A DNA stretch of 60,429 nt from an uncultured Clostridia bacterium (GCA_964482715.1 CAYZYX010000005.1:1-60429); one strand, 5' to 3'; positions 22,794 through 60,429 are shown, counted from the stretch's first letter. Numbers and translations are program-made. The notes: a model not told the origin generated them from the sequence alone.

Positions 22794-22880
22794 GCGAGGG
22801 TGGCGGAATTGGTAGACGCGCTAGACTTAGGATCTAGTGAGGTAAACCTCGTGCGGGTTCGAATCCCGCCTCTCGCACCA
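22794..22880 (+). tRNA. tRNA-Leu(TAG)
   Basis: CTAGA-CT-TAG-GA-TCTAG anticodon arm, long variable arm GAGG-TAAA-CCTC, CCA end. Confidence 0.96.
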
Positions 22881-43381: not shown

Positions 43382-43827
43382 GGGTTACCACCTTTCTTCA
43401 AAATGTTTATCATAGCTTCCAGAGCCAAAATATAACCTTGTTCCCCCAGGCCTGATATTTGGCCAACACAAACTGGAGCTATAAGAGACCTGTGGCGGAA
43501 GTTTTCCCTCTGGTAGATGTTACTTAAGTGCACCTCTATTACCGGGAGCCTGGTAGCCGATATGGCATCTCTTATGGCCACACTGGTATGAGTATAGCCA
43601 CCGGGGTTAATTATAATCCCCTGAGCCCATCCACGGGCTTCCTGAATAAAATCAATTATTTTTCCCTCATGATTAGTTTGCTTAATCTGAACCTGGCAAC
43701 CCACCTCTTCTGCTTTTTTGATTATAAGTTCGTTGATCTTGTCCAGAGTAACAGTTCCATACCATTCAGTTTCTCTTTCGCCTAAGAGGTTAAGGTTGGG
43801 TCCATGAACAATTAAAATCTTTATCAT
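43378..43827 (-). CDS. aroQ: Type II 3-dehydroquinate dehydratase
   Basis: HGPNLNLLG, QTNHEG, INPGGYTHTS, EVHLSN. Confidence 0.97.
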   Translation of the reverse strand: MIKILIVHGPNLNLLGERETEWYGTVTLDKINELIIKKAEEVGCQVQIKQTNHEGKIIDFIQEARGWAQGIIINPGGYTHTSVAIRDAISATRLPVIEVHLSNIYQRENFRHRSLIAPVCVGQISGLGEQGYILALEAMINILKKGGNP

Positions 43828-45422
43828 GAAACTATCTCCTGGATCACTTTCCTTACAAGTGATTGAGGGATCTCGTCAACAAGGACAATCCGGCCAATTG
43901 CTTCAGGCAAAGCAAAGACCTGTTTACCTTCTCTTATTTTTTTGTCAACTTTTAAAGCCCTGAAAATTTTTTCTGCATCCACTCCTTTAGCTTTAACTGG
44001 AAGTTTAGCTCTAACCAGTAATCTAATTAAATTTTGCAACCCGGATGGGGAGAAAAGACCAATTTTTTCTGCAATCATTGATTCCCCAACCATTCCAATA
44101 GCTACAGCTTCTCCATGAGTGTACCTTCTGTAACCTGATGCTTTTTCAATAGCGTGACCCAGTGTATGTCCGAAGTTAAGGATCTGTCTTATACCTTTTT
44201 CTTCTCTTTCATCCTGTTCAACCACTTTGATTTTGGTCTGGATAGCCTTATTTATCAAAAACCTTAACGTATGGGGGTCTTTTTTCAAAGCTCTGGTAAT
44301 ATTTTTTTCCAGATAAGAGAAGAAATTATCGTTATCTATTATAGCACACTTGATGACTTCGGCTATTCCCTCTCTAACCCTCCTGGGAGGAAGGGTTTTA
44401 AGAACCCCAGGATCGATCAGAACAAATTTAGGTTGGTAGAAACAACCTACCAGATTTTTTCCCTGAGGGAGATTAACTCCTACCTTACCTCCCACACTGG
44501 AATCAACCTGTGCTAATAGAGAAGTTGGAACAACTACAAAGTTAACTCCTCGCAGAAAGGTTGCCGCTACAAAACCAGAAAGATCTCCAACCACTCCTCC
44601 CCCCAGGGCGAGAATTGAAGAAGTTCTATCCATTTCCAGATCTATGCAGAAATTGTACATTTTTTTTGCCTGAGAGAGAGATTTGTATCTTTCTCCTGGA
44701 GGAATGACCAGAGAACTTACCAGAAATTTTTTCCTTTGCAGGGAGTTTGCTACCTTTTTGCCGTAAATAGGAAAAACGTTTCTGTCAGAAATTACAAGGA
44801 TTTTCCCTTTTAAACCGAGTCTGCTGGCTATTTTCCCCGTCTCTTCAATAGAGCCCCCCACGTAAATTGGATAGGTTCTATCACCGACTCTCACCTTGAG
44901 TTCTCTTCCTGGAAGAACGGCAATTATTGCATTAACAATTTGAGGTATTGATAAACTGGAGGTATCAATGGTGAAATCAGCTTGCTGATAGTAAGGTTTT
45001 CTCACTTTTAAAAGTTCCTGGATTCTTTTTTTCTTGTTTCTAAACCCGTTTAAAAGAGGTCTTTCACCATTTTGATTTTTTGTCCTCTGTAAAATTACCT
45101 CTGTATTTGCAGTTAAACAAACCAGATATCCATTTTCCTTTAAGCATTTTATGTTCTCCGGACTTAAGACAGCACCTCCTCCAGTAGAAATCACATAACC
45201 TTTAAATTTAGAAATTTCTTTTATTACCTCCTTTTCCCTCTGGCGAAAGTAGTCTTCCCCTTTTTGAGCAAATATTTCAGGAATAGCCTTTCCCTCCTTC
45301 TTTTCAATCAGCTCATCTGTATCTACGTATCCCAGTTCCAGTCTTCTGGCAAGCTCTTTTCCAACAAGACTTTTACCAGTGCCCATAAAACCGATCAAAA
45401 CAATGTTTGTGCCATCTTTCAT
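43824..45422 (-). CDS. aroB: Shikimate kinase-3-dehydroquinate synthase fusion (AroKB)
   Basis: N-terminal GFMGTGKS and STGGG kinase domain; C-terminal GGGVVGD, DSSVGGK, LNFGHT, HGEAV. Confidence 0.96.
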   Translation of the reverse strand: MKDGTNIVLIGFMGTGKSLVGKELARRLELGYVDTDELIEKKEGKAIPEIFAQKGEDYFRQREKEVIKEISKFKGYVISTGGGAVLSPENIKCLKENGYLVCLTANTEVILQRTKNQNGERPLLNGFRNKKKRIQELLKVRKPYYQQADFTIDTSSLSIPQIVNAIIAVLPGRELKVRVGDRTYPIYVGGSIEETGKIASRLGLKGKILVISDRNVFPIYGKKVANSLQRKKFLVSSLVIPPGERYKSLSQAKKMYNFCIDLEMDRTSSILALGGGVVGDLSGFVAATFLRGVNFVVVPTSLLAQVDSSVGGKVGVNLPQGKNLVGCFYQPKFVLIDPGVLKTLPPRRVREGIAEVIKCAIIDNDNFFSYLEKNITRALKKDPHTLRFLINKAIQTKIKVVEQDEREEKGIRQILNFGHTLGHAIEKASGYRRYTHGEAVAIGMVGESMIAEKIGLFSPSGLQNLIRLLVRAKLPVKAKGVDAEKIFRALKVDKKIREGKQVFALPEAIGRIVLVDEIPQSLVRKVIQEIVS

Positions 45423-47471: not shown

Positions 47472-47499
47472 ATTTTAATAAATTAACAGGCTCTGTCAA
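47472..47499 (-). promoter_or_regulatory. Sigma70-type promoter of the aro operon
   Basis: Minus strand TTGACA, 16 bp, TAAAAT, about 30 bp upstream of the aroE ATG. Confidence 0.7.
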
Positions 47500-47510
47500 T
47501 CTTTCCTGCC

Positions 47511-47735
47511 CTGAGGTTGGGACACTTTTTTAAGTAGATAGGGGTCCCGGATATTCCAAAGGAAGCCTCTTTTTGGCGAGCAGAAAACTTTGCCTTAGTA
47601 GGAACTTTTGCACAGCCAAAAAGCGGAGGCCGAGCTACACTAAAATGATTAGGTGAGATAAACCTCTTGCGAGGCCGTCTTCCGTGGGATATCCGGGACC
47701 CAGAAAAAAGCTGTGAGAAACTGTCCCAATTTCAG
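47511..47735. repeat. Structured intergenic repeat, copy 1 (nested inverted repeats)
   Basis: Outer IR CTGAGGTTGGGACA/TGTCCCAATTTCAG; perfect 13-bp IR GGGTCCCGGATAT (47542-54)/ATATCCGGGACCC (47689-701); inner 9-bp IR CTTTTTGGC/GCCAAAAAG; core homologous to 60246-60366. Confidence 0.75.
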
Positions 47736-47882
47736 TTCCTGCCATAGTTTCGGAAAAAATTCCTGTTAGGTAGCCCGGGTGCGTATATCTTGCTTTAAAG
47801 GAAAGGTGATTCCCTTCCGTTTTAATGTTATGAGTTTTATCTTTGTTATAAGACTTTTTCCCGAAACTGGGGATATAAGACC

Positions 47883-47910
47883 TTGTTCCTCTTCTGGAAT
47901 TTGTTATAAT
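47883..47910 (+). promoter_or_regulatory. Extended -10 promoter for the HAD gene
   Basis: TG-T-TATAAT at 47902-47910; weak -35 TTGTTC. Confidence 0.55.
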
Positions 47911-47956
47911 ATGTGTTCAAATTTTAACGCCAATTACTAAGGAGGAGGAAGTTTGT

Positions 47957-48739
47957 ATGGCTGTAAAAATTGTCGCCTGTGATCTGGACAGGACTTTGAT
48001 GAGTGAGATTCCTATTCAGCCTGAAGTAAGGGATTTTTTTGTGGAACTTCAAAGAAAGGGTATCAAGTTTGTTATAAACTCGGGTCGTTCTCTGGAAAAT
48101 ATACTGGACATCTTATCTCAAAGTGAAATTTATTTTGATAGAGGCTACCCGGAAGCCATAATCTCCAGACACGGAGTTTTTATTCATTACCTTCAGGGGA
48201 AAACCTATGTGGAAGATGAAGAATGGAATAGACAGAGAAGAGAAGATATGGATATTTTGCAGGATGAGATTGGGTGGAAGAGCAGATCCTGGGAAAAGAT
48301 GATTGAAGAGGACCTGCAAATTTTTCCCCAGAAAAAAAATATTGCCTATGGTGTATTTGAGATGCTTTTTAATACTGATGAGGAGGCAGAAAGGGTTAGA
48401 CAGATTCTTTTAAGAGAAAATGATTTAAAATACACAACTTTCCTGAGAAACAGGCATTTTTTAACTGCTACTCTGGCTACCGCTTTAAAGGGCCGATCTT
48501 TATCCAGAGTAGCCTGGAGCTTCAGGGTGTATCCTTCTCAGGTGGTTGCCGTGGGTGATTCCCAAAATGATGAGGATATGCTTGATGGTAAATACGGTTT
48601 TATACCAGCCGCTCCTTCAAATGCTGAACCAGGTATAAAAACCATGGTGAGAGAAAATAAAGGATATGTTGCCACTCTTCCGGAAGGAAGAGGGGTTGTA
48701 GAAGTGGTAAGCTCACTCCTTAACGGCACCAAAAGTTAA
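47957..48739 (+). CDS. HAD superfamily IIB (Cof/sucrose-phosphatase-like) hydrolase
   Basis: Motif I DLDRT, NSGR, K in LKG, GDSQND; strong SD. Confidence 0.88.
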   Translation: MAVKIVACDLDRTLMSEIPIQPEVRDFFVELQRKGIKFVINSGRSLENILDILSQSEIYFDRGYPEAIISRHGVFIHYLQGKTYVEDEEWNRQRREDMDILQDEIGWKSRSWEKMIEEDLQIFPQKKNIAYGVFEMLFNTDEEAERVRQILLRENDLKYTTFLRNRHFLTATLATALKGRSLSRVAWSFRVYPSQVVAVGDSQNDEDMLDGKYGFIPAAPSNAEPGIKTMVRENKGYVATLPEGRGVVEVVSSLLNGTKS

Positions 48740-49558
48740 ACCTCTCACCAGATATCTCTGAATGGTTAAAGCTAAAAGTACAGGTGGAGCTATAGCAAGC
48801 AGTGTATTTACAGACGCTACATTAAATAAAACTCCTCTTGTGCTTCTCGCTGAGAGGATATAGACAGGCATAGTTCCTGCCTTTGCGGAAGTTAAAGTAA
48901 GAGCAAATAAAGCTTCGTTCCAGGCAAAAGCGAAAACTATAATAGCTGTGGCGATCAGTCCATTCACTGCTAAAGGAAGAGATACCCGGGTAAAAGCCTG
49001 CCAGTCACTTGCTCCATCAATAAGAGCCGCCTCTTCCAGTTCCACAGGTATATCTCTAAACATCTCCCTCATTATCACTACACCAAAAGGGAGGTTAAAG
49101 GTAACGTAGACAAGGACCAGTCCCCTCCAGGTATCAAGAAGATGTAATTTCATCATTATTATGAAAAAAGGAATGAGTACAACTACTGGGGGAAGAACTC
49201 TCTGTGAGAGAAACCAAACTGTGAGATCTTTGGATTTAATGATGTTCCATCGGTACCGAGCCAGAGCATAAGCAGCCATGGTTCCTATGACTAAAACTAT
49301 TGCCGTAGTAGCTGTGCTTACCACTGCCGAGTTGATAAGGGGTTTGATGGGATCTCCCTGTGTAAAAACCTTATCCCAGGCCCAAAGACTGGGCTGGAAG
49401 TTGATGTAAGGGAAAAGAGAACCCGGATTGAAGGTTTCAATTTTTGGTTTTATGGAATTACTCACCGCCCAGTAAAAAGGAAAAAGCATCCATAAAGTTC
49501 CCGCAATTATTATTATCCATATAAAGACTCTTTTGATAGATCCCTCTTTTTGCTTCAT
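48713..49558 (-). CDS. Carbohydrate ABC permease (MalG-like)
   Basis: ELEEAALIDGAS, AWNEAL. Confidence 0.92.
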   Translation of the reverse strand: MKQKEGSIKRVFIWIIIIAGTLWMLFPFYWAVSNSIKPKIETFNPGSLFPYINFQPSLWAWDKVFTQGDPIKPLINSAVVSTATTAIVLVIGTMAAYALARYRWNIIKSKDLTVWFLSQRVLPPVVVLIPFFIIMMKLHLLDTWRGLVLVYVTFNLPFGVVIMREMFRDIPVELEEAALIDGASDWQAFTRVSLPLAVNGLIATAIIVFAFAWNEALFALTLTSAKAGTMPVYILSARSTRGVLFNVASVNTLLAIAPPVLLALTIQRYLVRGLTFGAVKE

Positions 49559-49570
49559 AACAGGGCACCT

Positions 49571-50428
49571 TTATTCATAAATTTTACGCATTCTACCGAA
49601 AAATTGAACAACAACGATCATCACTATTAAAAGAAGCAAAAAAGCCATGGCAGAACCATGGCCAAAATCAAAGTACTTTATAGATGTGCGGTAGTTTAAT
49701 ACACAGTATATCTCAGTTGTTCTGCCAGGCCCTCCTTCAGTTAAGCTGAAGACAAGTCCAAATTGTTTAAAAGCTTCTATAAGACGTAAAAGTAATGCAA
49801 TGGTGAAGGCTGGCAAAATTGAAGGAAAGGTAATATATCTGAAAATTTGAAACTCTGAGGCAGTATCAAGACTTGCTGCTTCATACATCTCTTCCGGAAC
49901 AGACTGTATAGCAGCAAGCAGAATTATGAAAGCAAAAGGAGTCCATCTCCATATATCAAGTAAAAGAATAGCCACCGTAGCCCAGAAACCGGTTGAGAGC
50001 CAGGGAACCTGGGTACCAAAAAAACTCAGAAAGTAATTAATGGGACCTCCTGTCTCATGAAACATGGTTACTCCAAGATAGCCCACCGCTACTCCTGTGG
50101 TGAAAAGAGGGGAGGTAAAAATGGTACGGAATACTGCCTTGCCCTTCAGTTCTCTGGCAAAGACCCAGGCAAATCCAAGGCCAAGAGCCATCTCCACTGG
50201 AACTGCCACACAAACGTAGATAAGCATTACACGAAATGCATTCCAGTAGTCAGGTGATTTAAAAAGATCAATAAAATTCTGAAAACCAACAAACTCACCT
50301 ACCCCCATACCCAGCCTGTAGGTAAAAAAACTGAGTCGCAGGGAGTCAATAAGTGGGTAGATGGTGAAAATAAGCACCCACACAACTGCGGGTAGCAGGA
50401 AAACAAACTTCATATAACCTTTGCGCAT
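49571..50428 (-). CDS. Carbohydrate ABC permease (MalF-like)
   Basis: DIWRWTPF, EMYEAASLD, TEGGPG. Confidence 0.92.
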   Translation of the reverse strand: MRKGYMKFVFLLPAVVWVLIFTIYPLIDSLRLSFFTYRLGMGVGEFVGFQNFIDLFKSPDYWNAFRVMLIYVCVAVPVEMALGLGFAWVFARELKGKAVFRTIFTSPLFTTGVAVGYLGVTMFHETGGPINYFLSFFGTQVPWLSTGFWATVAILLLDIWRWTPFAFIILLAAIQSVPEEMYEAASLDTASEFQIFRYITFPSILPAFTIALLLRLIEAFKQFGLVFSLTEGGPGRTTEIYCVLNYRTSIKYFDFGHGSAMAFLLLLIVMIVVVQFFGRMRKIYE

Positions 50429-50452
50429 TTTTTCCTGTCCTTTGATTTACTG

Positions 50453-50489
50453 GTAAAAAAGAAGCAGGGGAGAAATTCCCCTGCTTCTT
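50453..50489 (-). terminator. Intrinsic terminator-like hairpin after the third SBP gene
   Basis: AAGAAGCAGGGGA/TCCCCTGCTTCTT stem followed by a T run on the minus strand. Confidence 0.75.
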
Positions 50490-50496
50490 GGTAAAC

Positions 50497-52032
50497 TTAT
50501 CCCTTGTATCCCACAGACTCTCTAAACAGTTTCAACTGTCTTTCTTTACCCAGGCGGTTGGTTATCCTGACAAAATCCTTATAACATTCGTCAAGAGCTT
50601 CTTCAGGAGAGAGCTCTCCGGATGCCGCCTTTCCAAGAGCAAAGTCTAAAGCTCTCCAGTATTCTTCTCCACCAGGAATTCTTAGATAGAGTATCTGGAG
50701 AGGGTTGGTAAAGTCTATGTAATAAGCATCGGTGTAAGGTTTCACATCGTGAGGATCCCAGCCCTGTTCTACATAATCTTCAATTGAAGCTGTTCCATAA
50801 GGAGGCAGGAAGGCAAAGGTTCTTCCTGGATCAACTCCGGTCCATCCTCGAGTAAAGTTCCAGAAGGCGTTTTCCTTAACAGCCATAAAGGCACAGTAGT
50901 CGTAGGTTGCTTCAGGGTGCTTAGAATAGCGGGAAATAACTGGATGCCAGCTTCCACCTGTGGTATTACCGACCTGGATAACCTTATCGTACTTTTTCCA
51001 CACCTTCTTTATGGGATTATAAACTTCATATCTTCCAGGCATGGGAGTAGCACCAACTTTCCCCTTTACCCTTGATTCTTTGGGATCCTGGGCCAAAGCT
51101 CCTAAGTCACCCCAGGTGAAACAGAAAATAGCATCTCCTTTAAGGAAAAGATCCCATCCTTCACCAAGAGTCCAGGCCAACATAGCTCTTGGCCCGTAAT
51201 TTACCATTTCCACCATATCTTCCATGGCTTTCAGGTGTCCTTCAGAATTTATCAGAGGTTCCATGTTTTCAGGGTTAAACCAGAAATAGGGATTGTCAGG
51301 AGATATTACATAACAGGCTGCCCAGGAAGCATAGTGGAACATTGCCTGTTCTCCCACTTTAAGATGCATACTGAGTCCATAATCAACTTTTCCATCCTTG
51401 TCCCAATCCCATCCGTTGAAAAATTTGGCGATGTCCAGGAATTGATCGGTAGTTTTAGGAGGAACTGGCAGATCGTATCCAAATTCAGCCTTAAATCTTT
51501 TTCTATATTCAGGATTGGTTAGTATATCCTCACGATAGTAAAGAACCTGTCCATCGTTATCATTGGGAATTCCATACCATTTACCACCCCAGGTCAGAAG
51601 TTTCTTTATAGCTGGAAGAACAGTATCTGGATCCCATTGAGGAAAGCGCGGGTCTTTCATGAACTTCTCAATGGGAATTATGTAAGGTTCAACAGCAGAG
51701 AAGTAATCTCCATAATACCAGGAAGCTGTGAGAAAGGCATCGTATTCTCCCATTCCAGTGATAAGGTCGGTGAATATTTTCTGGTGAAATGCCGCCAGGG
51801 GAACCTCAACTACTTCGACCTTCCCCCCTGTTTCTTTTTCCCACTTCCGACCCAGGATAAAAAGAGGCTGAGAGACAGTTGCTTTTAAGGTCAAAATACG
51901 TACAGTCACACCTTTGTAGGGGTTTGTTGCCAGCCAGGCTTTTCTCTCCGGAGTCATCTCATATGCTGAGACACAGGTTAACCCCAGAAGAGAAAAAGCC
52001 ACAATCAAACCTACAACTTTTTTCCAGCTCAT
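50497..52032 (-). CDS. Sugar ABC solute-binding protein
   Basis: Signal peptide ending CVSA; YYREDI and PVPPKTTDQFLD segments; DWDKDGKVD loop; precedes two permeases. Confidence 0.88.
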   Translation of the reverse strand: MSWKKVVGLIVAFSLLGLTCVSAYEMTPERKAWLATNPYKGVTVRILTLKATVSQPLFILGRKWEKETGGKVEVVEVPLAAFHQKIFTDLITGMGEYDAFLTASWYYGDYFSAVEPYIIPIEKFMKDPRFPQWDPDTVLPAIKKLLTWGGKWYGIPNDNDGQVLYYREDILTNPEYRKRFKAEFGYDLPVPPKTTDQFLDIAKFFNGWDWDKDGKVDYGLSMHLKVGEQAMFHYASWAACYVISPDNPYFWFNPENMEPLINSEGHLKAMEDMVEMVNYGPRAMLAWTLGEGWDLFLKGDAIFCFTWGDLGALAQDPKESRVKGKVGATPMPGRYEVYNPIKKVWKKYDKVIQVGNTTGGSWHPVISRYSKHPEATYDYCAFMAVKENAFWNFTRGWTGVDPGRTFAFLPPYGTASIEDYVEQGWDPHDVKPYTDAYYIDFTNPLQILYLRIPGGEEYWRALDFALGKAASGELSPEEALDECYKDFVRITNRLGKERQLKLFRESVGYKG

Positions 52033-52129
52033 GATTACCCCCTTTTTTCTTTTTTTATATCAGACAAAATAACATCTTTTATTTTTTCCCATCACCTCCT
52101 TTTCATTTTGGTATTATTTTTCAATTTTA

Positions 52130-52158
52130 ACTATACAAAAATTATACGCAGTTGTCAA
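52130..52158 (-). promoter_or_regulatory. Sigma70-type promoter for the third ABC operon
   Basis: Minus strand TTGACA, 17 bp, TATAGT. Confidence 0.72.
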
Positions 52159-52319
52159 TCAAAAGGATAACTGACATTGGAACACTTTTTACCTGCACTT
52201 TTCTCTTCAGGCTCCCGGGCAAAGCAGACGGTCTTGTAAAAGGCATCTCGGGAGTCTCTTATTTATTCTTCGTAAACAAAAGTATCCCACTATCAGAAAG
52301 GATACAGAACACAAATACG

Positions 52320-53066
52320 TTAGTTCTGGCTGCATTTTGACTTTTCAAAAAAAGGTGGAGGAATTTTTTTGTGCCAGGCCTTTTCCATCATACTTTTTAC
52401 TCTGGTTATGTTTTCTTTTGCCAGACTGGTTTTTTGTCCCTCTTCAAGATGAAGAATGATTTCATCAAGTTCCTCATAGGTTATACCCATTTCCTCTTCA
52501 TCGGTTTGCCCATTCCACAGTCCCGCACTTGGAGGTTTTTTAATGATGTACCCGGGAACCCCAATATACCTTGCTATTTCTCTCACTTCCGTTTTTAATA
52601 TGCCCCCTAACGGCAGTATATCAACACCGCCATCCCCATATTTGGTAAAATAACCTACTGCAAGCTCACTTCTGTTACCTGTTCCTATAACGATATAATT
52701 TAAATTATTGGCAAAGTAGTAAAGAGTTATCATTCTGAGTCTTGGCTTTAAATTGGCTTGAGCTAACTTATTTCCTGAGGGAAGAATCTCCTTAAATTTA
52801 TCGTAGACTGGCTCAAGAGGAATGAGCCTGGTGTTAATTTTAAACTTTTTTGCAACATCCCGTGCACATTGAATATCAAAAGGATCGTTGTAACACGGCA
52901 TAATAAGTGCCAAAACATCGTTTCCCAGTGCCTGTTTGCACAGTCCGCCCACTACTGCTGAATCTACGCCTCCACTCAGTCCAAAAACTCCTCCTCTGGC
53001 TCCAGCCTCTTTAACCTTTTCCTTTATCCATTCAACGATTTTTATGCACAGCCTGGCAATTGTCAT
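52320..53066 (-). CDS. nadE: NH3-dependent NAD+ synthetase
   Basis: GLSGGVDS, NLKPRLRM, GYFTKYGDGG, PSAGL, QTDE; no glutaminase domain. Confidence 0.96.
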   Translation of the reverse strand: MTIARLCIKIVEWIKEKVKEAGARGGVFGLSGGVDSAVVGGLCKQALGNDVLALIMPCYNDPFDIQCARDVAKKFKINTRLIPLEPVYDKFKEILPSGNKLAQANLKPRLRMITLYYFANNLNYIVIGTGNRSELAVGYFTKYGDGGVDILPLGGILKTEVREIARYIGVPGYIIKKPPSAGLWNGQTDEEEMGITYEELDEIILHLEEGQKTSLAKENITRVKSMMEKAWHKKIPPPFFEKSKCSQN

Positions 53067-53560
53067 TGCAGTTTTTCCTTTAATTGCAGTTTTTCCTTTA
53101 ACTCCTTATAGGTCATCTCTAAGGCTTCTGGAATTACTTTAGTCTCAGAGAAAATAGGCATAAAGTTGTAATCCCCTGTCCAGCGAGGAACAAGATGAAG
53201 ATGGATATGATCAATAATTCCGGCTCCTGCTGCTTTTCCCAGGTTTATACCGATATTGAAACCTTCAGGATGTAGGGTTTCTTTCAGGATTTTTATCATT
53301 TTACGTAACAGTTCCATCATTTCCAGACTTTCCTCAGAGTTTAACTGTTCCACAGATGGTATATGTCGATAAGGAGCAATCATCAAATGGCCATTATTAT
53401 AAGGAAAGCGATTTAATATGACAAAACAGAATTTTCCTCTCAAAAGTATATAATTTTTTTCGTCTTCATTTTCCTTTGGTTTTTTACAAAATATACACCC
53501 TTCTTCCTTTTCCTCCTGCCTTACATACCTGGAACGCCAGGGAGCCCATAGTCTATACAT
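53063..53560 (-). CDS. HIT family hydrolase (Fhit/Ap4A phosphorylase-like)
   Basis: LWAPWR, CIFC, PYNNGH, HIHLHLVPR. Confidence 0.92.
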   Translation of the reverse strand: MYRLWAPWRSRYVRQEEKEEGCIFCKKPKENEDEKNYILLRGKFCFVILNRFPYNNGHLMIAPYRHIPSVEQLNSEESLEMMELLRKMIKILKETLHPEGFNIGINLGKAAGAGIIDHIHLHLVPRWTGDYNFMPIFSETKVIPEALEMTYKELKEKLQLKEKLQ

Positions 53561-53623
53561 TTTTACACCTTAGATGTAAAAAATAACAAAATCAGTTTAT
53601 TTTGTCAATTTTAAGGAGTGGAT

Positions 53624-53908
53624 TTAAAAGATCTCTTTCAGTGACAATTTCCATAGCCATATTTCATCGGCAGGAAATCTTTTTCGGAGAGTATCTATCT
53701 TTTTCTTAAATTCCTGTTCTTTTTCTTTTTCTATGAGGGCAAGGATACAGTGATATAATCCTGGCCAGACATGATTTCCCATATGTTTTTCCTTCCATTT
53801 TCCCTTTACTCTATCCCACTGAATATATCGGTCAATATGGAGTTCTTCCACGATGACCATTACTTCTTTTTCCAGAACTTCTTCATATACGATAAAGAAA
53901 AGATACAT
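53624..53908 (-). CDS. Small PII-like RND-associated protein (PG0541-like)
   Basis: 94 aa; HMGNHVWPG motif; last gene of the RND operon. Confidence 0.65.
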   Translation of the reverse strand: MYLFFIVYEEVLEKEVMVIVEELHIDRYIQWDRVKGKWKEKHMGNHVWPGLYHCILALIEKEKEQEFKKKIDTLRKRFPADEIWLWKLSLKEIF

Positions 53909-53920
53909 TTTTGTTCCCGC

Positions 53921-56900
53921 TTATATTTTTGCCTTTTGTTTTTCTCTTCGCTCCTCAAAAAGGGTATAGATTACTGGTATTATAAGTAAGGTGATAAAGG
54001 TTCCGGCTAAGAGCCCTCCAATAACTGAACGAGCCATAGGAGCCCAGTTTTCAGCTCCCGGTCCTATTTTTAAAGCTAAAGGTATCATAGCCAGTATGGT
54101 GGTCAGAGCAGTCATCAAAACCGGACGAAACCTAATTCTTCCCGCCTCTCTCGCCGCCTCATTGATTTTTTTTCCTCTCAGGCGTAAAAGATTTGTATAA
54201 TCCACGAGCACGATAGAATTATTAACCACAATCCCCACCAGCATTATCACACCTACCATTGAAATTACGCTCAAAGTGGTTCCCGTCAAAAAGAGAATCC
54301 AGATTACGCCTATGAGAGAAAGGGGTATGGTTAGAAAAATGATAAATGGATCTCTTAGAGACTCAAACTCAGAGGCCATGACCATATAAACAAGAAACAT
54401 GGCTACTATTAAGGCATAACCCAACCAGGTCATTGATTTTCGCATATCCTCTCCACTTCCTCCTGCTCTCCAGTAAAATCCAGAGGGAAACTTTACTTTT
54501 GACACTTCGTTTTCCACATCCTTTAACACATCTCCAAGAGGTCTTCCAATTACCCTGAATGAAATATCAGCGATTCTTCGCTGGTTCTTTCTGTAGATTG
54601 TCAGAGGTGCTCGTGTATACTCAACACCAACTAAGTCTTTCAATTTGACATGAACTCCCCGTGGGGTTAAGATCTCAAGCTGGAGGATATCTTCAATTCT
54701 GGACCTGTCTTTTTTTCTCAACCTAACTCTAACGTTGTACTCCTTGCCCTTTTCTTTGTAAGTTGAAGCCACTGAACCCTGAATAGCCGTGTTTATTAGT
54801 TCTGAAACGTAGGAGGTGGAAAGACCGAGGTCGTACAACCTATCTCTTTTGTATCTCAAATTGACCTGAGGTCGTCCTTCCTCTCCCATACTGTTGTTCA
54901 CGTTGATAATTCCCGGTATTTTCTTTATTCTCTCTTCAACTTGGCGTGATATTTCCTGAAGTTTGATCAGGTCATATCCGTAGATTTCAATATTGGCGCC
55001 TGAAGGGTCAAGTCCCCCAATACCGAGGGGAGAAGTGGATCCAATTTCAGCTTCGGGAAGTAGCCTGGTAAGAATATTACGAAGTTCTTTCTCAATCTCC
55101 TGGCTGGTTTTTTCACGTTTGCTGCTATCCACAAGTTCCAGTCTTATACTTCCTGCATGAGACCCTTCACTCATAAAGGCAAGAAAACCTCTTCCACTTC
55201 CCACAGTGGTATACATGGTTTTTACTTCAGGGAAATTTTCTTTTATTATTTTCTCAGCCTTTTTGAAGGTTTTGTCTGTTTCCTCCAGACTCGTCCCCAC
55301 CGGTCTTTTTAATTGGAGATAAATTGAACCCGTGTCCATTTGAGGAAGAAAAGACGTTCCTATAAATTTGAAGAGGATGATCATACTTGTTAAAAAGAGT
55401 GCTGCTATAATAAAAAGAGTTAGTTTGCGGTAAGTTAAACACCAATCAAGCATTTTCTCGTATATTTTGATGGAACTCTCAATAACTTTACCCAGAAAAA
55501 TCGCTAACCTGCCCGTCTGCTTTTTTCCTAAATTACGCATTTTTGAGGTAATTAAGGGTACAAGAGATAAAGCAACGAAAAGAGAAATCCCCAGGGAAAA
55601 AACAACGGTCAAAACTATATCCCTAAACATCTGACCTGCTATTCCGGGAACAAAAAGTATGGGGAAGAACACGCAGATAGTGGTGAGAGTTGAGGCAGTA
55701 ATAGCAGTTGCTACCTCCGAAGATCCAATTATGGCTCCCTGATCCGCAGGTTCACCTTTTTCCCGGTGACGAAATACACTTTCAAGAACAACGATAGAAT
55801 TATCCACAAAAAGCCCAACCCCCAGAGCAAGCCCGCCCATAGAGACTATGTTCATGGTGACATGGAAAATATTCATTATGGCAAAGGTACAGATTATGGA
55901 AACTGGAATGGAAACCAGCACTACCAGGCTGCTTCTGAAAGTGCGGAGGAAAAAGTAAAGAACTGTTGCACATAAAACCACGGCAAGGATGATTGTGTTG
56001 AAAAGATTGGCCATGGATTCTCTGATGGGTTTGGCAGTATCAAAAGTAACCGATAGTTTTACGTCTTTAAGCGTATCTTCAATTTCTTTTAATTTTGAAA
56101 GAACCCGGTCTGAAACTTCTACTGTATTAGCTCCAGACGCTCTGCGTATGGTTATTACCACAGCTGGTTTACCGTTTATGCGTGATATTTGACGTTTCTC
56201 CTCAGTTGCATCTACGACGTCGGCTACATCTTTAATATATATGGGAACCCCATCCTGGTAGGTGATAACAGTATTAGCAATTTGCTCTACACTGGTATAC
56301 TCACCCAATGTTCTTATGGTATATTCAGTTTTCCCTTCCTCTACAATTCCCGCAGGAAATATCACATTTTCTTTTTTTATAGTGCTTAGCAATTGTCCTA
56401 AAGTGATCTTTCTTGAGGTTAGTTTTTCCCTGTCTATCTGAACCTGAATTTCCCTTATTTCTCCACCACCAGTGTCTGCAGCGGCTACCCCTTCGATTCT
56501 TTCCAGAAGAGGTTCCACTTCATCTTCGGCTATTTTTCTAAGTTCTGCCTGACTTTTTTCTCCAGCTAAGCCAATAGCCATAATGGGACTTAAGGTGGGA
56601 TCAAACTTGAATATCAGAGGTTCTTCCGCATCATCAGGAAGATACGACTTGACAAGGTCAACTTTTTCTCTGACGTGTCTTTCAGCTATATCCATATCAG
56701 TGCCCCAGGAGAATTTAGCCATCACCAGAGATATACCTTCTCTTGATTGGGAGGTTAAAGTATCCAGATTTTCCACGGTGGCTATTGTTTCTTCTATGGG
56801 CCTTGTAATAAGAGATTCGATGTCCTCAGGGGAAGCTCCAGAATAAGTGGTTATAACTGCTACAATGGGAAGCTCCAGCTGGGGATAAAGATCCATTTTT

Positions 56901-56995
56901 AATCCCACAAAGGCAACAAGTCCAATCCCCACCAGAGCTATAAATACCATGAAGAAGGTTATCGGTCGCTTGACCGATAAACTGGAAAGCCCCAT
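53921..56995 (-). CDS. RND (AcrB/HAE1-like) efflux permease
   Basis: KRPIT, TM4 GLFVDNSIVVLE, TM10 GIVVNNSIVLVD, RFRPVLMT; 1024 aa. Confidence 0.96.
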   Translation of the reverse strand: MGLSSLSVKRPITFFMVFIALVGIGLVAFVGLKMDLYPQLELPIVAVITTYSGASPEDIESLITRPIEETIATVENLDTLTSQSREGISLVMAKFSWGTDMDIAERHVREKVDLVKSYLPDDAEEPLIFKFDPTLSPIMAIGLAGEKSQAELRKIAEDEVEPLLERIEGVAAADTGGGEIREIQVQIDREKLTSRKITLGQLLSTIKKENVIFPAGIVEEGKTEYTIRTLGEYTSVEQIANTVITYQDGVPIYIKDVADVVDATEEKRQISRINGKPAVVITIRRASGANTVEVSDRVLSKLKEIEDTLKDVKLSVTFDTAKPIRESMANLFNTIILAVVLCATVLYFFLRTFRSSLVVLVSIPVSIICTFAIMNIFHVTMNIVSMGGLALGVGLFVDNSIVVLESVFRHREKGEPADQGAIIGSSEVATAITASTLTTICVFFPILFVPGIAGQMFRDIVLTVVFSLGISLFVALSLVPLITSKMRNLGKKQTGRLAIFLGKVIESSIKIYEKMLDWCLTYRKLTLFIIAALFLTSMIILFKFIGTSFLPQMDTGSIYLQLKRPVGTSLEETDKTFKKAEKIIKENFPEVKTMYTTVGSGRGFLAFMSEGSHAGSIRLELVDSSKREKTSQEIEKELRNILTRLLPEAEIGSTSPLGIGGLDPSGANIEIYGYDLIKLQEISRQVEERIKKIPGIINVNNSMGEEGRPQVNLRYKRDRLYDLGLSTSYVSELINTAIQGSVASTYKEKGKEYNVRVRLRKKDRSRIEDILQLEILTPRGVHVKLKDLVGVEYTRAPLTIYRKNQRRIADISFRVIGRPLGDVLKDVENEVSKVKFPSGFYWRAGGSGEDMRKSMTWLGYALIVAMFLVYMVMASEFESLRDPFIIFLTIPLSLIGVIWILFLTGTTLSVISMVGVIMLVGIVVNNSIVLVDYTNLLRLRGKKINEAAREAGRIRFRPVLMTALTTILAMIPLALKIGPGAENWAPMARSVIGGLLAGTFITLLIIPVIYTLFEERREKQKAKI

Positions 56996-56999
56996 TTTT

Positions 57000-58340
57000 C
57001 TACTTTTCCTCCGTCAGTATGAGTTTCACCCGGGCAAACATCCCCGGCCTTATTTTAAGATCAGGATTGGGAATTTTAACTTCAACTTTTATTTTTCGGC
57101 TAAGGGGATCCATCACGGGGCTTATGTTAATTTCAAGAGGAGTAAAGGTTTTATCAAGATAATTTTCTATCTTAACATTTACTTTTTTAGTTTGAGAGAT
57201 CTGGTCAAGATACTCCTCTCCGATGTGCAGGATTATCTTTACGGAGCTTATATCTACTATGCTTACCAGAGGAGCCTGTGGTCCTACCAGGGAGCCTTCA
57301 TCAGCAAAACGCCCGCTTACAATTCCAAAGATGGGAGCCTTTATAATACAATCTTCAAGACGGGACTTTGCAAGTTCAAGAGCTGCCTGTGCATTTTGGA
57401 CCTGAGCTCTGGCAAGTTCAACATCCCTCTCCCAGAGTTTATCTTCCCAGGAGGTTTTGGCAAGTAAATAGGAAGATCTCGCATTTTCAAGCTGAGCTTT
57501 TGATCCCTGTATTTGAACTTCCCAGCTTTTTGCCTCTTTTAACTTTTCAAGCTTTTCCAGGTTTGCTCTTGCCTGTGCAACATTGGCCTCTGCTATCTGA
57601 ATATCCTCAGCTCTTGCGCCTTTTTTGATAAGTTCAAGGCTTGCTTTTGCTGAGTCAAGTTGGGCCTTTGCAACCTCAAAGGCAAGCTTAGCTTTATCAA
57701 GAGCCTGTTCAGGAATTGCCCCTCTGTTGTAGTCGTCCTCTGCTCTTTGCAGATCCTTTTTCACTGTCTGGAAGTTGGCAAGAGCCTGTTCATAAGCAGC
57801 TTCCACCCGATCGATTTCTTCTTTTCTTGCCCCCTCTTTTGCCTTGGTTAAATTGGCCTCTGCTATTTTTAAGGCAGCTGTTGCCTGAGAAAAACCTGCA
57901 AAAAACTCTGTTTTAGAAGTTGCTGTAGTTAAATCAAGATGTGCCTGTGCGGAAAGAAAAGCAGCCTCTGCAGTCCTTAGATTGTTTTCCGCCTGAATTT
58001 TTGCCAGTGATTTTGCCTTTTCATAATTTGCCCTGGCCGAAATTAAAGCTGCTTCGGCCTGTTTTACCTGAAGAGCAATATCTTTAGAATCTATTCTGGC
58101 AATTACCTGTCCCTTTTCTACCCGGTCTCCGAGCTCCACAAGAATTTCTTCCAATGTCCCACTTACCCTGGGCATTACCTGAACCTGTCTGGCTGGTGCA
58201 ATATCAGCAGTGAGGGATATTTCCTTTGTGGGTTCTTTTTTCTCTTGAGAAGAAATTTCTTCTTCTGCCCACAGAGAAAATGGATTTATCATCAGGAAGA
58301 AAAATGCTATTCCCGTAACTAAAATAATCTTTTTCTTCAT
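57000..58340 (-). CDS. RND membrane fusion protein with a very long alpha-helical hairpin
   Basis: Lipoyl halves MPRVSG..GDRVEKGQ and IKAPIFG; LKIRPGMFARV; about 245 helical residues between them. Confidence 0.9.
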   Translation of the reverse strand: MKKKIILVTGIAFFFLMINPFSLWAEEEISSQEKKEPTKEISLTADIAPARQVQVMPRVSGTLEEILVELGDRVEKGQVIARIDSKDIALQVKQAEAALISARANYEKAKSLAKIQAENNLRTAEAAFLSAQAHLDLTTATSKTEFFAGFSQATAALKIAEANLTKAKEGARKEEIDRVEAAYEQALANFQTVKKDLQRAEDDYNRGAIPEQALDKAKLAFEVAKAQLDSAKASLELIKKGARAEDIQIAEANVAQARANLEKLEKLKEAKSWEVQIQGSKAQLENARSSYLLAKTSWEDKLWERDVELARAQVQNAQAALELAKSRLEDCIIKAPIFGIVSGRFADEGSLVGPQAPLVSIVDISSVKIILHIGEEYLDQISQTKKVNVKIENYLDKTFTPLEINISPVMDPLSRKIKVEVKIPNPDLKIRPGMFARVKLILTEEK

Positions 58341-58363
58341 AGTTTTCCTCCTCTCCTTAACTT

Positions 58364-59653
58364 TTAATCCTCTAATTTTCCCATAGCCTTAATCAAAGCA
58401 GCCTTTGCAAGATTATAATCGTACAATGCCTTGCTGTAATTTAATTTTGCTCTGGTAAGAGCGAGATTGGTGTCAAGCACTTCTATCTGAGTTATAGTTC
58501 CGTTTCTGTATCTTCCCTCCGCAATGGATAAAGCCTCCTCTGCTTGTTGGACGTTTTTTTCCTGAGCAAAAAGAGTCTCCCTTGCTGCCTGCATATCCCA
58601 GAAAGCCTTTTTCACTTCCAGTGTGATCGTATCCTCCAGCTGGTTTACCATGAGCTTTACCTGTTCTAACCGGGATTTTTCTTGTTCAATAATGGCTTTT
58701 GTTCTACCAGAATCAAAAAAGGGGAAAGAAAGAACAAGACTTATACTCCAGTTTTTTTCCCAATCAGTGTTTGCCTCTCCCGGGCTGGTAAACTCATAAT
58801 TACCGGTCAGGGAAAGAACTGGCAAATTCCGGTATCTGGCAATTTTTAAAGAAAACATAGCCATCTTCATGTTTAGAAGAACGCTTTTCAGATCACTTCT
58901 ATTATTAAGAGCGATATCGATGGCTTCATTCAAGGTTAAATGTAGGGGTTCGAACTTCAGTTTACCCTCAATTTCCAAGGAAGAGGAGGAAATTGATAGA
59001 ATACTGGCTAACCTCTCCTTAGCCATGTTTAGATTGTTCCTTGCCTGGATCAGATTTGGCTTAAGATTGGCCACCTCGACTTTTGCTCTTAAAAGATCAA
59101 AACGAGAAGCTCTCCCTGATTGATAAAAAGATTCCACCATTTTGAGATGAAGTTCTGCCTGATTTAGAGCTTGCTCTGCTATTTTGAGGTTTTCTCTGGC
59201 CAAAAGAACAGAGTAAAAGCTCTCTTTTACCTGGAAGATAAGATCTTTCTTAACAGCAGAGAGATCTTCTTCGGTCTTTTGGTAGTTTAAGTTAGCCTGC
59301 TGGTAAGCGAGTGAAAGTTTTCCGCTCGTGTACACTGGCTGGGTAAGAGAAAAAGAAAAAGAAGTGGTGTCCTGTTCTCCCATTTCCAGCTCACCTATAT
59401 AGGGAATAGAAATAGAGGGAACCTCTCCAAAATGAGTGTAGATCCCGTTTAACCTGAGAGAGGGGAAAAATTCGGCAACTGCTCCTTTTATCCTGTGCTG
59501 TGCCTCTTTCACTTTTTCTTCAGCAAGAAGAATGCGAAGGTTATTTTTTAAAGCAATATCTATTGCCTCTTCTAAGGTAATTGCCTGCAAGCTATTGTGC
59601 AAGAGAAAAAAAGAGAAAGAAAAAACCACCGCAAAAAGAAGCTCTTTTCTCAT
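58364..59653 (-). CDS. TolC-family outer membrane efflux channel
   Basis: TLEEAIDIALKNN, PSL, QPVYTSG, RYRNG..TQIEVLD. Confidence 0.92.
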   Translation of the reverse strand: MRKELLFAVVFSFSFFLLHNSLQAITLEEAIDIALKNNLRILLAEEKVKEAQHRIKGAVAEFFPSLRLNGIYTHFGEVPSISIPYIGELEMGEQDTTSFSFSLTQPVYTSGKLSLAYQQANLNYQKTEEDLSAVKKDLIFQVKESFYSVLLARENLKIAEQALNQAELHLKMVESFYQSGRASRFDLLRAKVEVANLKPNLIQARNNLNMAKERLASILSISSSSLEIEGKLKFEPLHLTLNEAIDIALNNRSDLKSVLLNMKMAMFSLKIARYRNLPVLSLTGNYEFTSPGEANTDWEKNWSISLVLSFPFFDSGRTKAIIEQEKSRLEQVKLMVNQLEDTITLEVKKAFWDMQAARETLFAQEKNVQQAEEALSIAEGRYRNGTITQIEVLDTNLALTRAKLNYSKALYDYNLAKAALIKAMGKLED

Positions 59654-60108
59654 TGTTTGCCTCTTTTTTCCTCATTACAAATTCTCTGATGAAGGACTTG
59701 AAGTATCTGCAGAAACTTCTTTCTTTCAGTCTGATTGAAGTATCTCAAGACAGACATTATTTTTTCCTTTTTTGTCCTCTCAATTTTTCTTACCACTTCG
59801 TCTCCATAGGGAGTGAGAGTTACCCTTATAATTCTCCTGTCAGAAGGATCAAATTTTCTTGTCACAAGATTTTTTTCAACGAGTTTGTCTACAATCCGGG
59901 TAAGAGTGCTAAGTTGAACTCCACAGGCCTCGCCCAGCTGACTCATCATAGGCTCTTTTAAAAGATATATCTGCCTTAGAACTTCAAGCTGGTGAAAATT
60001 AAGATCCACATCAATTACTTTCCCCGTCTCCTTCATCCCAAAAATCCTTGTTATATCTGACATCAGCCTGTCAAGGAGCTCTGCCTGCTTTTGAATTTCA
60101 TCCTCCAT
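59650..60108 (-). CDS. MarR family regulator
   Basis: LTRIVDKLVEKNLV, DPSDRR, LTPYG. Confidence 0.93.
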   Translation of the reverse strand: MEDEIQKQAELLDRLMSDITRIFGMKETGKVIDVDLNFHQLEVLRQIYLLKEPMMSQLGEACGVQLSTLTRIVDKLVEKNLVTRKFDPSDRRIIRVTLTPYGDEVVRKIERTKKEKIMSVLRYFNQTERKKFLQILQVLHQRICNEEKRGKQ

Positions 60109-60156
60109 AATTTTTCCTTATTAGAAAATTTTCAAAAAGAAAATATAAAAAATTGC

Positions 60157-60192
60157 AAATTTTATTATAATAAAATTTTTTAATACCGTCAA
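60157..60192 (-). promoter_or_regulatory. Promoter of the marR-RND operon with an overlapping palindromic operator
   Basis: Minus strand TTGACG, 17 bp, TATAAT; perfect 22-bp palindrome AAATTTTATTATAATAAAATTT (60157-60178) covers the -10. Confidence 0.72.
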
Positions 60193-60245
60193 TAATTTAA
60201 CTCTAACATGGAACATTTTTTCTCATGAAGATAAAGGCCGCCGGA

Positions 60246-60429
60246 GATATCTTGCAAGCAAGCTTTTTTTGGCGAGCAGCCGGCCTTCACATGGTAGCCA
60301 ATGTTGCACCCACAAAAAGGAAAGGCCTGCTGCACTAAAATGATGGGTGAGATAAAACCTGTGCGAAAGCATCTTTTTTGCCCCGAGAAAGCAGCGAGCG
60401 AAGCTATGCCAGCGGGAAATATTTTCCCT
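60246..60429. repeat. Structured intergenic repeat, copy 2 (probably cut by the window end)
   Basis: Shares blocks GATAT, TTTTTGGCGAGCAG, TTGCAC, AAAAAG, AGGCC, CACTAAAATGAT, GGTGAGATAAA, CCT and TGCGA with 47550-47672 at near-constant spacing. Confidence 0.75.

Follow-up and report, generated by a model that had tools for sequence, protein, structure and literature searches.

Among prokaryotic MITEs, the Correia elements of Neisseria have been studied best; MITEs are typically <500 bp in total length, survive mostly in intergenic DNA and, in Correia and several others, carry their own sigma-70-like promoters (PMC10969869). QMITE2 of Coxiella burnetii displays direct repeats of 7-9 bp, terminal repeats of 23-29 bp and a core of 113-145 bp (PMC10969869). 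Placement relative to a short motif is also described among autonomous elements: ISAjo2 and others of the IS1202 family are found 5 bp away from the XerC site of pdif/dif (PMC10132070), and insertion sequences that target REP sequences exist (PMC1525189). Both keep to a fixed spacing from a short functional motif and thereby occupy a gene-sparing 'safe haven', features shared with the element described here. In yeast, tethering to the transcription machinery directs the Ty3 and Ty1 retrotransposons to sites just upstream of genes transcribed by RNA polymerase III, following the same logic: an insertion at a promoter's upstream edge does little harm.

We analysed a stretch of 60,429 nucleotides (the window) from an uncultured deep-sea bacterium related to Candidatus Aerophobetes and represented in hydrothermal-vent and marine-sediment samples. 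It contains three copies of an element which very probably belongs to a MITE family, kept or inserted just upstream of -35 hexamers of the sigma-70 type, and either of its ends can face the promoter. The likeness to prokaryotic MITEs includes terminal inverted repeats, direct repeats in younger copies, a non-coding core, intergenic location in multiple copies, a transcript predicted to form a very stable stem-loop and frequent proximity to promoters; QMITE2 is a close match in anatomy. The target duplication of Correia elements is TA, compared to 8 bp here, and while Correia has internal promoters, a scan found none in the window element, which instead adjoins an already existing -35 with near-constant spacing. 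Ty3 and Ty1 are eukaryotic retroelements whose integrase is tethered to TFIIIB or Pol III, whereas this is a bacterial DNA element for which a tether to sigma factor or RNA polymerase is hypothetical. In place of a dif or REP target there would be a -35-type hexamer (TTGACA), and while ISAjo2-related elements occur in one orientation (PMC10132070), the window element occurs in both and is non-autonomous.

Copies, termini and target-site duplications

The original prediction of a diverged pair of stretches at 47550-47672 and 60246-60366 was confirmed as an observation, and its interpretation was right in part. On realignment 91/125 columns are identical (73%), which is far above chance (score 51 vs -16.6 +/- 4.6 in 500 shuffles), and a blastn self-search yields 74% identity over 104 nt (E = 7.7e-8); the invariant blocks, single-base indels and T-run/A-run stem described earlier were all found on re-examination. 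Although both stretches are real, they are mere cores, with homology reaching far past either, and the pair is joined by a third copy detected with nhmmer on the minus strand. The copies and their parts are as follows.

47503-47510, no strand: left target-site duplication of copy A, TTCCTGCC, an exact 8-bp repeat of 47736-47743, the two touching both termini
47511-47735, plus strand: copy A, a full-length copy of the probable MITE, 225 nt, nhmmer E = 3e-77, holding the stretch 47550-47672
47511-47532, plus strand: 5' terminal inverted repeat of copy A, CTGAGGTTGGGACACTTTTTTA, pairing with 47714-47735
47542-47558 and 47685-47701, plus strand: subterminal inverted-repeat arms of copy A, pairing with each other over 17 nt, 94% complementary
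47559-47684, plus strand: passenger core of copy A, containing the invariant blocks and missing from copy C in alignments
47714-47735, plus strand: 3' terminal inverted repeat of copy A, reverse complement CTGAAATTGGGACAGTTTCTCA
47736-47743, no strand: right target-site duplication of copy A, TTCCTGCC
52162-52169, no strand: target-site duplication of copy C, AAAGGATA, an exact repeat of 52297-52304, with one extra A at 52170 before the terminus
52171-52296, minus strand: copy C, an internal-deletion derivative of 126 nt, nhmmer E = 4e-9 to profile positions 152-224
52297-52304, no strand: target-site duplication of copy C on the other side, AAAGGATA
60203-60429, plus strand: copy B, of the abundant subfamily, nhmmer E = 3e-42, holding the stretch 60246-60366 and cut by the window end

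The boundaries of copy A were set by a copy on another contig (L008), whose flanks diverge directly outside them. Imperfect terminal inverted repeats of ~22 nt, with the consensus CTGA-NN-TTGGRACA-S-TTTTT (R = G/A, S = C/G), are present at both ends of all five copies compared (A, B, C, L008 and a further copy, L003); each element also has subterminal inverted arms, and full-length copies additionally have a non-coding passenger core of ~125 nt. Copy B is complete in other assemblies, where it measures 293 nt (L009 9614-9906) owing to ~60 nt extra in its 3' half; the L008 and L003 copies are 224 nt and 235 nt, and all five are <500 bp. A and B are members of two diverged subfamilies, while C is a core-less deletion derivative that keeps both terminal repeats and the subterminal arms. 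Since the core is missing from this transposed copy, the conserved core is cargo, dispensable at an insertion.

Perfect 8-bp duplications also flank the L008 copy (ATAGATTC, touching the termini) and a third A-type copy, recovered from runs X1 and X5 (TCTTTGAC on either side); that of L003 matches at 7/8 positions, and none is recognisable at copy B. The hallmarks of MITEs are thus present, i.e. a length of <500 bp, terminal inverted repeats, direct repeats, lack of coding capacity and occurrence at several unrelated loci. No conserved coding capacity was found, the longest start-codon ORFs being <40 aa with frames broken or different between copies, and a 37-aa ORF matched nothing real among 1.84 billion proteins. 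Searches of Rfam, plasmids and phages brought up no sequence resembling the element.

Distribution and copy number

Within the window the copies lie beside aroE/HAD (A), ABC-transporter/nadE (C) and marR/HAD (B) genes, and elsewhere beside CitMHS/ABC-ATPase genes (L008) and downstream of an epimerase gene (L003). Depth is equal across the three A-type junction contigs in each of two runs (8.6/9.5/9.4 and 12.3/12.4/12.6), thus one genome holds all three. Sequences of the B/L003 type reach a depth of 90-450 vs 7-13 in their flanks (X1, X5, X3, X9), falling abruptly at the termini; metagenome depth over the element is ~10-30x that of the flanks, a copy-number figure obtained from summed k-mer depth, to which related organisms sharing the samples may have contributed. 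Copies A and C are fixed across the fetched strains (C is present in strains L009-L011), and no empty allele was found within the species among those strains. In related species, whose RND pumps are 72-76% identical, the 46 kb fetched from three loci (L029-L031) contain no copy, and the sites upstream of marR (L029) and aroE (L030) are empty, with different adjacent genes.

We propose that a DDE-type transposase encoded elsewhere would move the MITE in trans, cutting the target at staggered positions 8 bp apart; repair of the cuts would generate the 8-bp direct repeats. No autonomous partner, with a transposase gene enclosed by matching terminal repeats, came to light: a terminal-repeat scan of viral contigs gave just chance matches inside phage genes.

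Position relative to promoters

Each copy in the window lies next to a minus-strand promoter:

47472-47499, minus strand: aroE operon promoter, TTGACA-16-TAAAAT, 11/12 to consensus, its -35 ending 3 nt from the copy A duplication
52130-52158, minus strand: solute-binding-protein/ABC-transporter operon promoter, TTGACA-17-TATAGT, read from sequence, its -35 ending 3 nt from the copy C duplication
60164-60192, minus strand: marR-RND operon promoter, TTGACG-17-TATAAT, 11/12 to consensus, its -35 ending 10 nt from the first base of copy B

The earlier placement of the A and B stretches directly upstream of the aroE and marR promoters, each 11/12 to consensus, therefore holds, and extends to copy C. 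All three elements start 10-12 nt upstream of a near-consensus -35, with either element end toward the promoter; the exact distances are 11 nt (A), 12 nt (C) and 10 nt (B), those of A and C representing 3 nt plus the 8-bp duplication. The background frequency of TTGACA in the window is 2.3e-4 per base per strand. Outside the window, the layout TGTCAA-N3-duplication recurs in the third A-type copy and in the flank consensus of X9, while B/L003-type copies have TTGACA or TTGACT 10-11 nt to the right (X1, X3, X5, X2, X7); the number of independent promoter-adjacent sites there is uncertain, as the metagenome-contig flanks are partly a consensus merged from several contigs (agreement 0.6-0.9). At the expected offset L003 has no -35-like hexamer and L008 has only a weak one (TTGCGT). 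The orthologous marR promoter is present without the element in a related species (L029), thus the promoter came first.

A second, unrelated repeat at 47746-47870 shows a similar promoter offset bias.

The mobile element is ordinary in kind, its unusual aspect being the near-fixed distance upstream of promoters in every window copy. The MITE would land, or persist, immediately upstream of sigma-70-type -35 hexamers, a spot at which insertion leaves the transcription unit uninterrupted. A more specific proposal, which we advance tentatively as quite possible, is that this MITE and apparently a second, unrelated repeat family home to the upstream edge of sigma-70-type promoters and cut 3 bp from the -35 in either orientation, with a transposase that reads (A)TTGACA or tethers to sigma factor or RNA polymerase, and with a core that may be tRNA-Leu-derived. 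Such promoter homing, if true, would give bacteria a counterpart to Ty3-style 'safe-haven' integration.

Alternative explanations

That the copies might represent a new family of structured ncRNA, i.e. paralogous non-coding RNA genes in which a long closing stem and conserved loops form a functional RNA, was part of the original prediction and now appears very improbable. The fold is indeed very stable, better on the plus strand (for copy A, MFE -101.8 kcal/mol, z = -7.85) than on the minus (-85.5, z = -5.39), with G-U pairs in its stems; the consensus structure has 90% of its cells paired, and 5/53 pairs change on both sides. However, long hairpins are expected from any MITE transcript (PMC10969869), and the two-sided changes come from six sequences that are effectively two lineages, so that they essentially represent one split between A-type and B-type subfamilies: the covariation is not significant, 61/500 shuffles yield as many, and RNAalifold gives covariation an unfavourable term (+2.04). 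The duplications and terminal repeats mark transposition, a consensus scan found neither a sigma-70-like promoter nor an intrinsic terminator inside the element, copy C has no core, and related species lack the element upstream of marR and aroE. Rfam gave no credible match over either of the predicted copies at E up to 10; in the whole window only three tRNAs reach the gathering score, none of them in the elements. The argument already made against a riboswitch stands, and we rejected a riboswitch or 5'-UTR cis-regulator as each of the three window copies lies upstream of the neighbouring operon's -35, outside that operon's transcript. A tRNA gene, or a SINE-like element derived from one, was also rejected: neither ARAGORN nor the Rfam tRNA model recognises a tRNA inside the elements, and the terminal repeats and fixed 8-bp duplication indicate DNA transposition. 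The 3' half of the core (about 47630-47684) does locally resemble tRNA-Leu(UAG) over ~55 nt. The other half of the original interpretation, a non-autonomous mobile element near promoters, is borne out by the terminal repeats, the 8-bp duplications, the several unrelated loci and the near-fixed distance to the -35, but its 'REPIN-like' qualifier is not. Like REPINs, the element is short, hairpin-forming, intergenic and present in many copies, and its better folding on the plus strand would suit single-stranded hairpin ends; REPINs moved by RAYT and palindrome-associated elements of the IS200/IS605 type, however, make no target-site duplications, whereas those seen here are clean 8-bp repeats. 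Furthermore, at 126-293 nt with a non-palindromic core the element is not a doublet of GC-rich, 20-40-nt palindromes, nothing REP-like was seen, and no RAYT or TnpA/TnpB was found among the ~23 proteins of the fetched loci with a Pfam scan or precomputed Pfam hits (a scan covering few of the window ORFs left of 43.8 kb), and we give this origin almost no credence.

Given a MITE, the promoter spacing could result from selection, if insertion is near-random and the surviving copies abut the upstream edge of a promoter because they are harmless there or because the element's end provides something of use at precisely that distance. MITEs do generally persist chiefly in intergenic DNA (PMC10969869), and two copies at the 3' ends of genes, L003 and (arguably) L008, lack a good hexamer. 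However, survival alone predicts a spread of distances and not the 3 nt plus duplication seen in A, C, the third A-type copy and the X9 flank; moreover, both element orientations occur at the same offset, an unrelated repeat family has a similar one, and the marR promoter, found without the element in a related species, predates it. We therefore consider selection a rather unlikely source of the spacing, and infer that it reflects target choice instead of selection after insertion. It is also conceivable, though improbable, that copies have been exapted as cis-regulatory modules, which would supplement the MITE explanation without replacing it. The MITE would carry putative regulator sites (e.g. 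repeated RGATA-like motifs), and landing at about -45 would join the aro, sugar ABC transporter and marR-RND promoters in one circuit, for which the core and stems would be kept. The presence of core-less copy C at the same position argues against this, and the likeness among copies may just mean recent spread. Activators commonly act just upstream of -35, a position that the element shares, and A and C are fixed across the sampled strains. GAAGATAAAGG, GGAGATACC, GTGAGATAAACC and GTGAGATACCC recur in direct orientation, and one internal hairpin holds its pairing despite sequence change between strains and copies.

Copies, boundaries and class of the element

The likeness that the original prediction had drawn between 47550–47672 and 60246–60366 is real: 91 of 125 aligned columns are identical (73%), with a score of 51 compared to −16.6 ± 4.6 for shuffled sequences, and the pair also emerges from an unbiased blastn comparison of the window with itself (E = 7.7e-8). 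The invariant blocks, single-base indels and T-run/A-run stem described for it are all present, but its coordinates were too short, the similarity running on at both sides. Two inverted repeats, one nested within the other, bracket copy A (47511–47528/47718–47735 and 47542–47558/47685–47701). The element's boundaries are fixed by comparison with a copy at L008, a locus fetched from outside the window, because the flanks of the two copies diverge exactly outside CTGAGG...TTTCAG. Copy B is truncated by the window end; following the marR protein into public assemblies gave access to the DNA beyond, and the remaining ~66 nt, with the matching 3' arm, lie in locus L009, where the full length is 293 nt (9614–9906). 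Copy B has ~60 nt extra in its 3' half (TTTTGCCCCGAGAAAGCAGCGAGCGAAGCTATGCC..., from ~60373, continuing to L009 ~9670), inserted after the TGCGA block and absent in copy A and in the copy at locus L003; this segment may be a nested fragment or may be left over from the parent element. Searching with a six-sequence profile revealed copy C (E = 4e-9), which has both termini and the subterminal arms and wholly lacks the conserved core.

Copies of the element and their marks of transposition
47511–47735: copy A
47503–47510 and 47736–47743: target-site duplication of copy A, TTCCTGCC, perfect 8-bp, abutting the termini
52171–52296, minus strand: copy C
52162–52169 and 52297–52304: target-site duplication of copy C, AAAGGATA, perfect 8-bp
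60203 to window end: copy B, no recognisable target-site duplication
Copy at L008: target-site duplication ATAGATTC, perfect 8-bp, abutting the termini
Third A-type copy (sequencing runs X1 and X5): TCTTTGAC on both sides, perfect 8-bp
Terminal-repeat pair of the element: CTGANNTTGGRACA...TGTYCCAANNTCAG

Imperfect ~22-nt terminal inverted repeats, CTGA-NN-TTGG(G/A)ACA(C/G)TTTTT, are common to all copies, and the L003 copy has a target-site duplication matching at 7 of 8 positions. Duplications of 8 bp fit several DDE insertion-sequence families. As RNA, copy A forms a single long hairpin whose interior is branched (−101.8 kcal/mol, z = −7.85 for the plus strand; −85.5, z = −5.39 for the minus strand). 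No reading frame is common to the copies; a 37-aa ORF in copy B was considered as the relic of a transposase N-terminus and rejected, having one marginal and uninformative match among 1.84 billion proteins. Rfam returned no match to the element at gathering thresholds for the whole window, nor at E up to 10 for copies A and B.

Prokaryotic MITEs are defined as elements of < 500 bp that carry terminal inverted repeats and, in younger copies, direct repeats, and whose transcripts form stable stem-loops (PMC10969869), and every one of these features that could be tested is present. The architecture matches that of ordinary MITEs such as QMITE2 and Correia (PMC10969869). No cognate transposase was found. 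We regard the element as very probably a new MITE family, a known thing in kind. As such it is ordinary biology, and its placement at promoter edges, a variant feature, is the part deserving attention.

Structured-RNA alternative and the tRNA-like core

A structured non-coding RNA, the other possibility raised in the original prediction, fares poorly. The stems are the transposon's terminal and subterminal repeats, a consensus scan of the element turned up neither promoter nor terminator, and copy C inserted, or persists, without the core. Five two-sided pair changes trace to a single split between the A-type and B-type subfamilies; that count is reached by 61 of 500 shuffles, and the covariation term is unfavourable. 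In one internal hairpin the pairing is kept while the sequence changes (CAC..GTG, TAC..GTA, CACTTAA..TTAAGTG), which on comparison of the copies hints at constraint but is not proof. Identification as a MITE keeps three intergenic regions from mis-annotation as novel RNA genes.

The copy B hairpin CACTAAAATGATGGGTGAG (60333–60351) becomes CACTTAACTTTTAAGTGAG in L009 (~9757–9776), with loop and inner stem rewritten and pairing intact; another copy has TACTAAAATTTTAGGTAAG. Two candidate promoters within the element were rejected: a sigma-54 promoter in TGGCGAGCAG...TTGC, by eye, as its spacing is unlike TGGCAC-N5-TTGC, and TTGCAC/TAAAAT as a sigma-70 promoter, which has a 27-nt spacer and in which other strains have a different sequence in place of TAAAAT.

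The 3' half of the core (47630–47684) resembles the tRNA-Leu(UAG) gene at 22794–22880 of the window (for example, GTGAGATAAACCTCTTGCG in the core versus GTGAGGTAAACCTCGTGCG), in a likeness that starts in the D-stem, takes in the anticodon arm and long variable arm and extends into the T-arm, and contains the conserved blocks CACTAAAATGAT, GGTGAGATAAA and TGCGA. The match has an nhmmer E of 0.0023, and its alignment score is equalled by 0–1 of 1000–2000 shuffles. Tools for tRNA detection made no call on this half; the cargo may be a tRNA-derived fragment.

Copies outside the window, copy number, host and relatives

Of the metagenome-contig loci retrieved with the pattern ACTAAAATGAN{1,3}GGTGAGATAA, two (L003, L008) are true copies and five are unrelated; in the genome collection the pattern gave a sole chance match within a kinase gene. 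Its block differs between strains, making it a poor search pattern. The L008 copy is 97% like copy A and is flanked by genes for a CitMHS transporter and an ABC-ATPase; the L003 copy is B-like, without the extra segment, and has two epimerase genes upstream. The third A-type copy is known solely from runs X1 and X5. A six-frame chimeric 'protein' query, designed to catch copies as spurious ORF calls, had no match, the plasmid and phage collections held no match to the element, and core and terminal-repeat patterns gave chance matches alone in viral contigs. One 2,095-bp viral-contig segment bounded by repeat-like sequences was rejected, being conserved phage structural genes.

Three contigs with A-type left junctions have equal depth in X1 and X5 (8.6/9.5/9.4 and 12.3/12.4/12.6), and all three therefore belong to one genome. 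With the L003 copy as reference, the summed depth of contigs from X1, X5, X3 and X9 is 90–450 over the element compared to 7–13 in the flanks, falling sharply at both termini. This corresponds to roughly 10–30 copies per genome-equivalent, if all derive from one population; an early estimate of 30–60 times was inflated by one short, very deep unitig. The abundant subfamily is the B/L003-type, the A-type being rare, and assemblies break within the element, as a repeat would predict. An apparent excess conservation of the core over the ends, and hence a selected RNA, was rejected as an artefact of taking the rare A-type as depth reference: with the abundant L003-type, the depth of the ends is at least that of the core.

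Candidatus Aerophobetes is the source of the closest named homologues of the RND pump (66–76% identity), and the runs containing the locus are hydrothermal-vent and marine-sediment metagenomes. Mobile elements of Aerophobetes-like bacteria seem not to have been described before. Copies A and C are in every strain of the species that we fetched, and no empty-site joints were seen in eight metagenome runs. Three related-species loci (pump 69–76% identical; 46 kb in total) contain no copy: the marR promoter (TTGACA-17-TATGAT) is present without the element in L029, and L030 is empty of it upstream of aroE, although neither is a strict empty site as the neighbouring genes differ. One 532-aa ORF in the window (43824–45422) joins shikimate kinase to 3-dehydroquinate synthase; in L030 the two are encoded by separate genes. 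The RND pump gene (window 53921–56995) is a single ORF of 1024 aa in the window versus two overlapping ORFs (643 and 355 aa) in L011 (13114–16060), a frameshift or assembly error in that sample.

Placement beside promoters

As proposed for a mobile element favouring promoter regions, all three window copies abut −35 hexamers. Those of aroE (TTGACA-16-TAAAAT, 11/12) and the ABC transporter (TTGACA-17-TATAGT) end 3 nt from the duplications of copies A and C, respectively, and that of marR (TTGACG-17-TATAAT, 11/12) ends 10 nt from copy B. TTGACA occurs in the window at 2.3e-4 per base per strand, and therefore three such coincidences are not due to chance. The promoter-facing end is 5' in A and B and 3' in C. 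Elsewhere, TGTCAA-TGA-(8 bp)-element is the arrangement at the third A-type copy and in the flank consensus from X9, and to the right of B/L003-type copies the sequence is (8 bp)-TT-TTGACA in X1, X3, X5 and X2 and ...CA-TTGACT-16-TAAAAT in X7; L008 fits weakly (TTGCGT) and L003 does not fit. Some of these outside flanks are a consensus of several contigs, so we treat the copies in the window as firm evidence and the others as supporting.

The spacing might reflect selection after insertion rather than choice of target. We consider the latter moderately likelier, since the distance is fixed, the element is found in both orientations, a relative already has the marR promoter, and a similar bias is seen in an adjacent, unrelated repeat. 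A transposase choosing its target could read (A)TTGACA directly, a sequence loosely resembling TTGGRACA in the terminal repeat, or could be tethered to sigma factor or polymerase bound at the promoter. Insertion at a fixed distance from a functional motif has precedents in the ISAjo2/IS1202 group at dif sites (PMC10132070) and in REP-targeting insertion sequences (PMC1525189); in a limited literature search no account of −35 hexamers as a target came up. If the 3-bp offset does represent target choice, the element would be a DNA transposon able to recognise promoters as such, which would amount to a safe-haven strategy new to bacteria, and its transposase would have a programmable-looking, motif-anchored insertion site. 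Such an element could also rewire the regions upstream of promoters, in this window those for aromatic amino-acid synthesis, a sugar ABC transporter and the marR-RND efflux operon.

The second, unrelated repeat family lies at 47746–47870, 10 nt right of copy A, with the inverted repeat AGTTTCGGAAAAAATTC/GACTTTTTCCCGAAACT marking its two ends. It has no recognised target-site duplication and no further copy in the window or fetched loci; its depth in vent metagenomes is 10–30 times that of its flanks. TGTCAA stands 13–15 nt to its left in four other left flanks and, with copy A subtracted, in the window as well. The 8 bp that separate the aroE −35 (+3 nt) from this repeat are precisely the duplication of copy A (TTCCTGCC). 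The sole contig of X19, a 2023 vent metagenome, on 5.2 kb of the region (217 nt, depth 11.9, window 47630–47845) begins in copy A, crosses the duplication and enters the second repeat, and its junction is unchanged. No flanking gene was recovered from X19 at ≥88% likeness, a pattern that reflects either patchy assembly or a two-repeat composite in another background.
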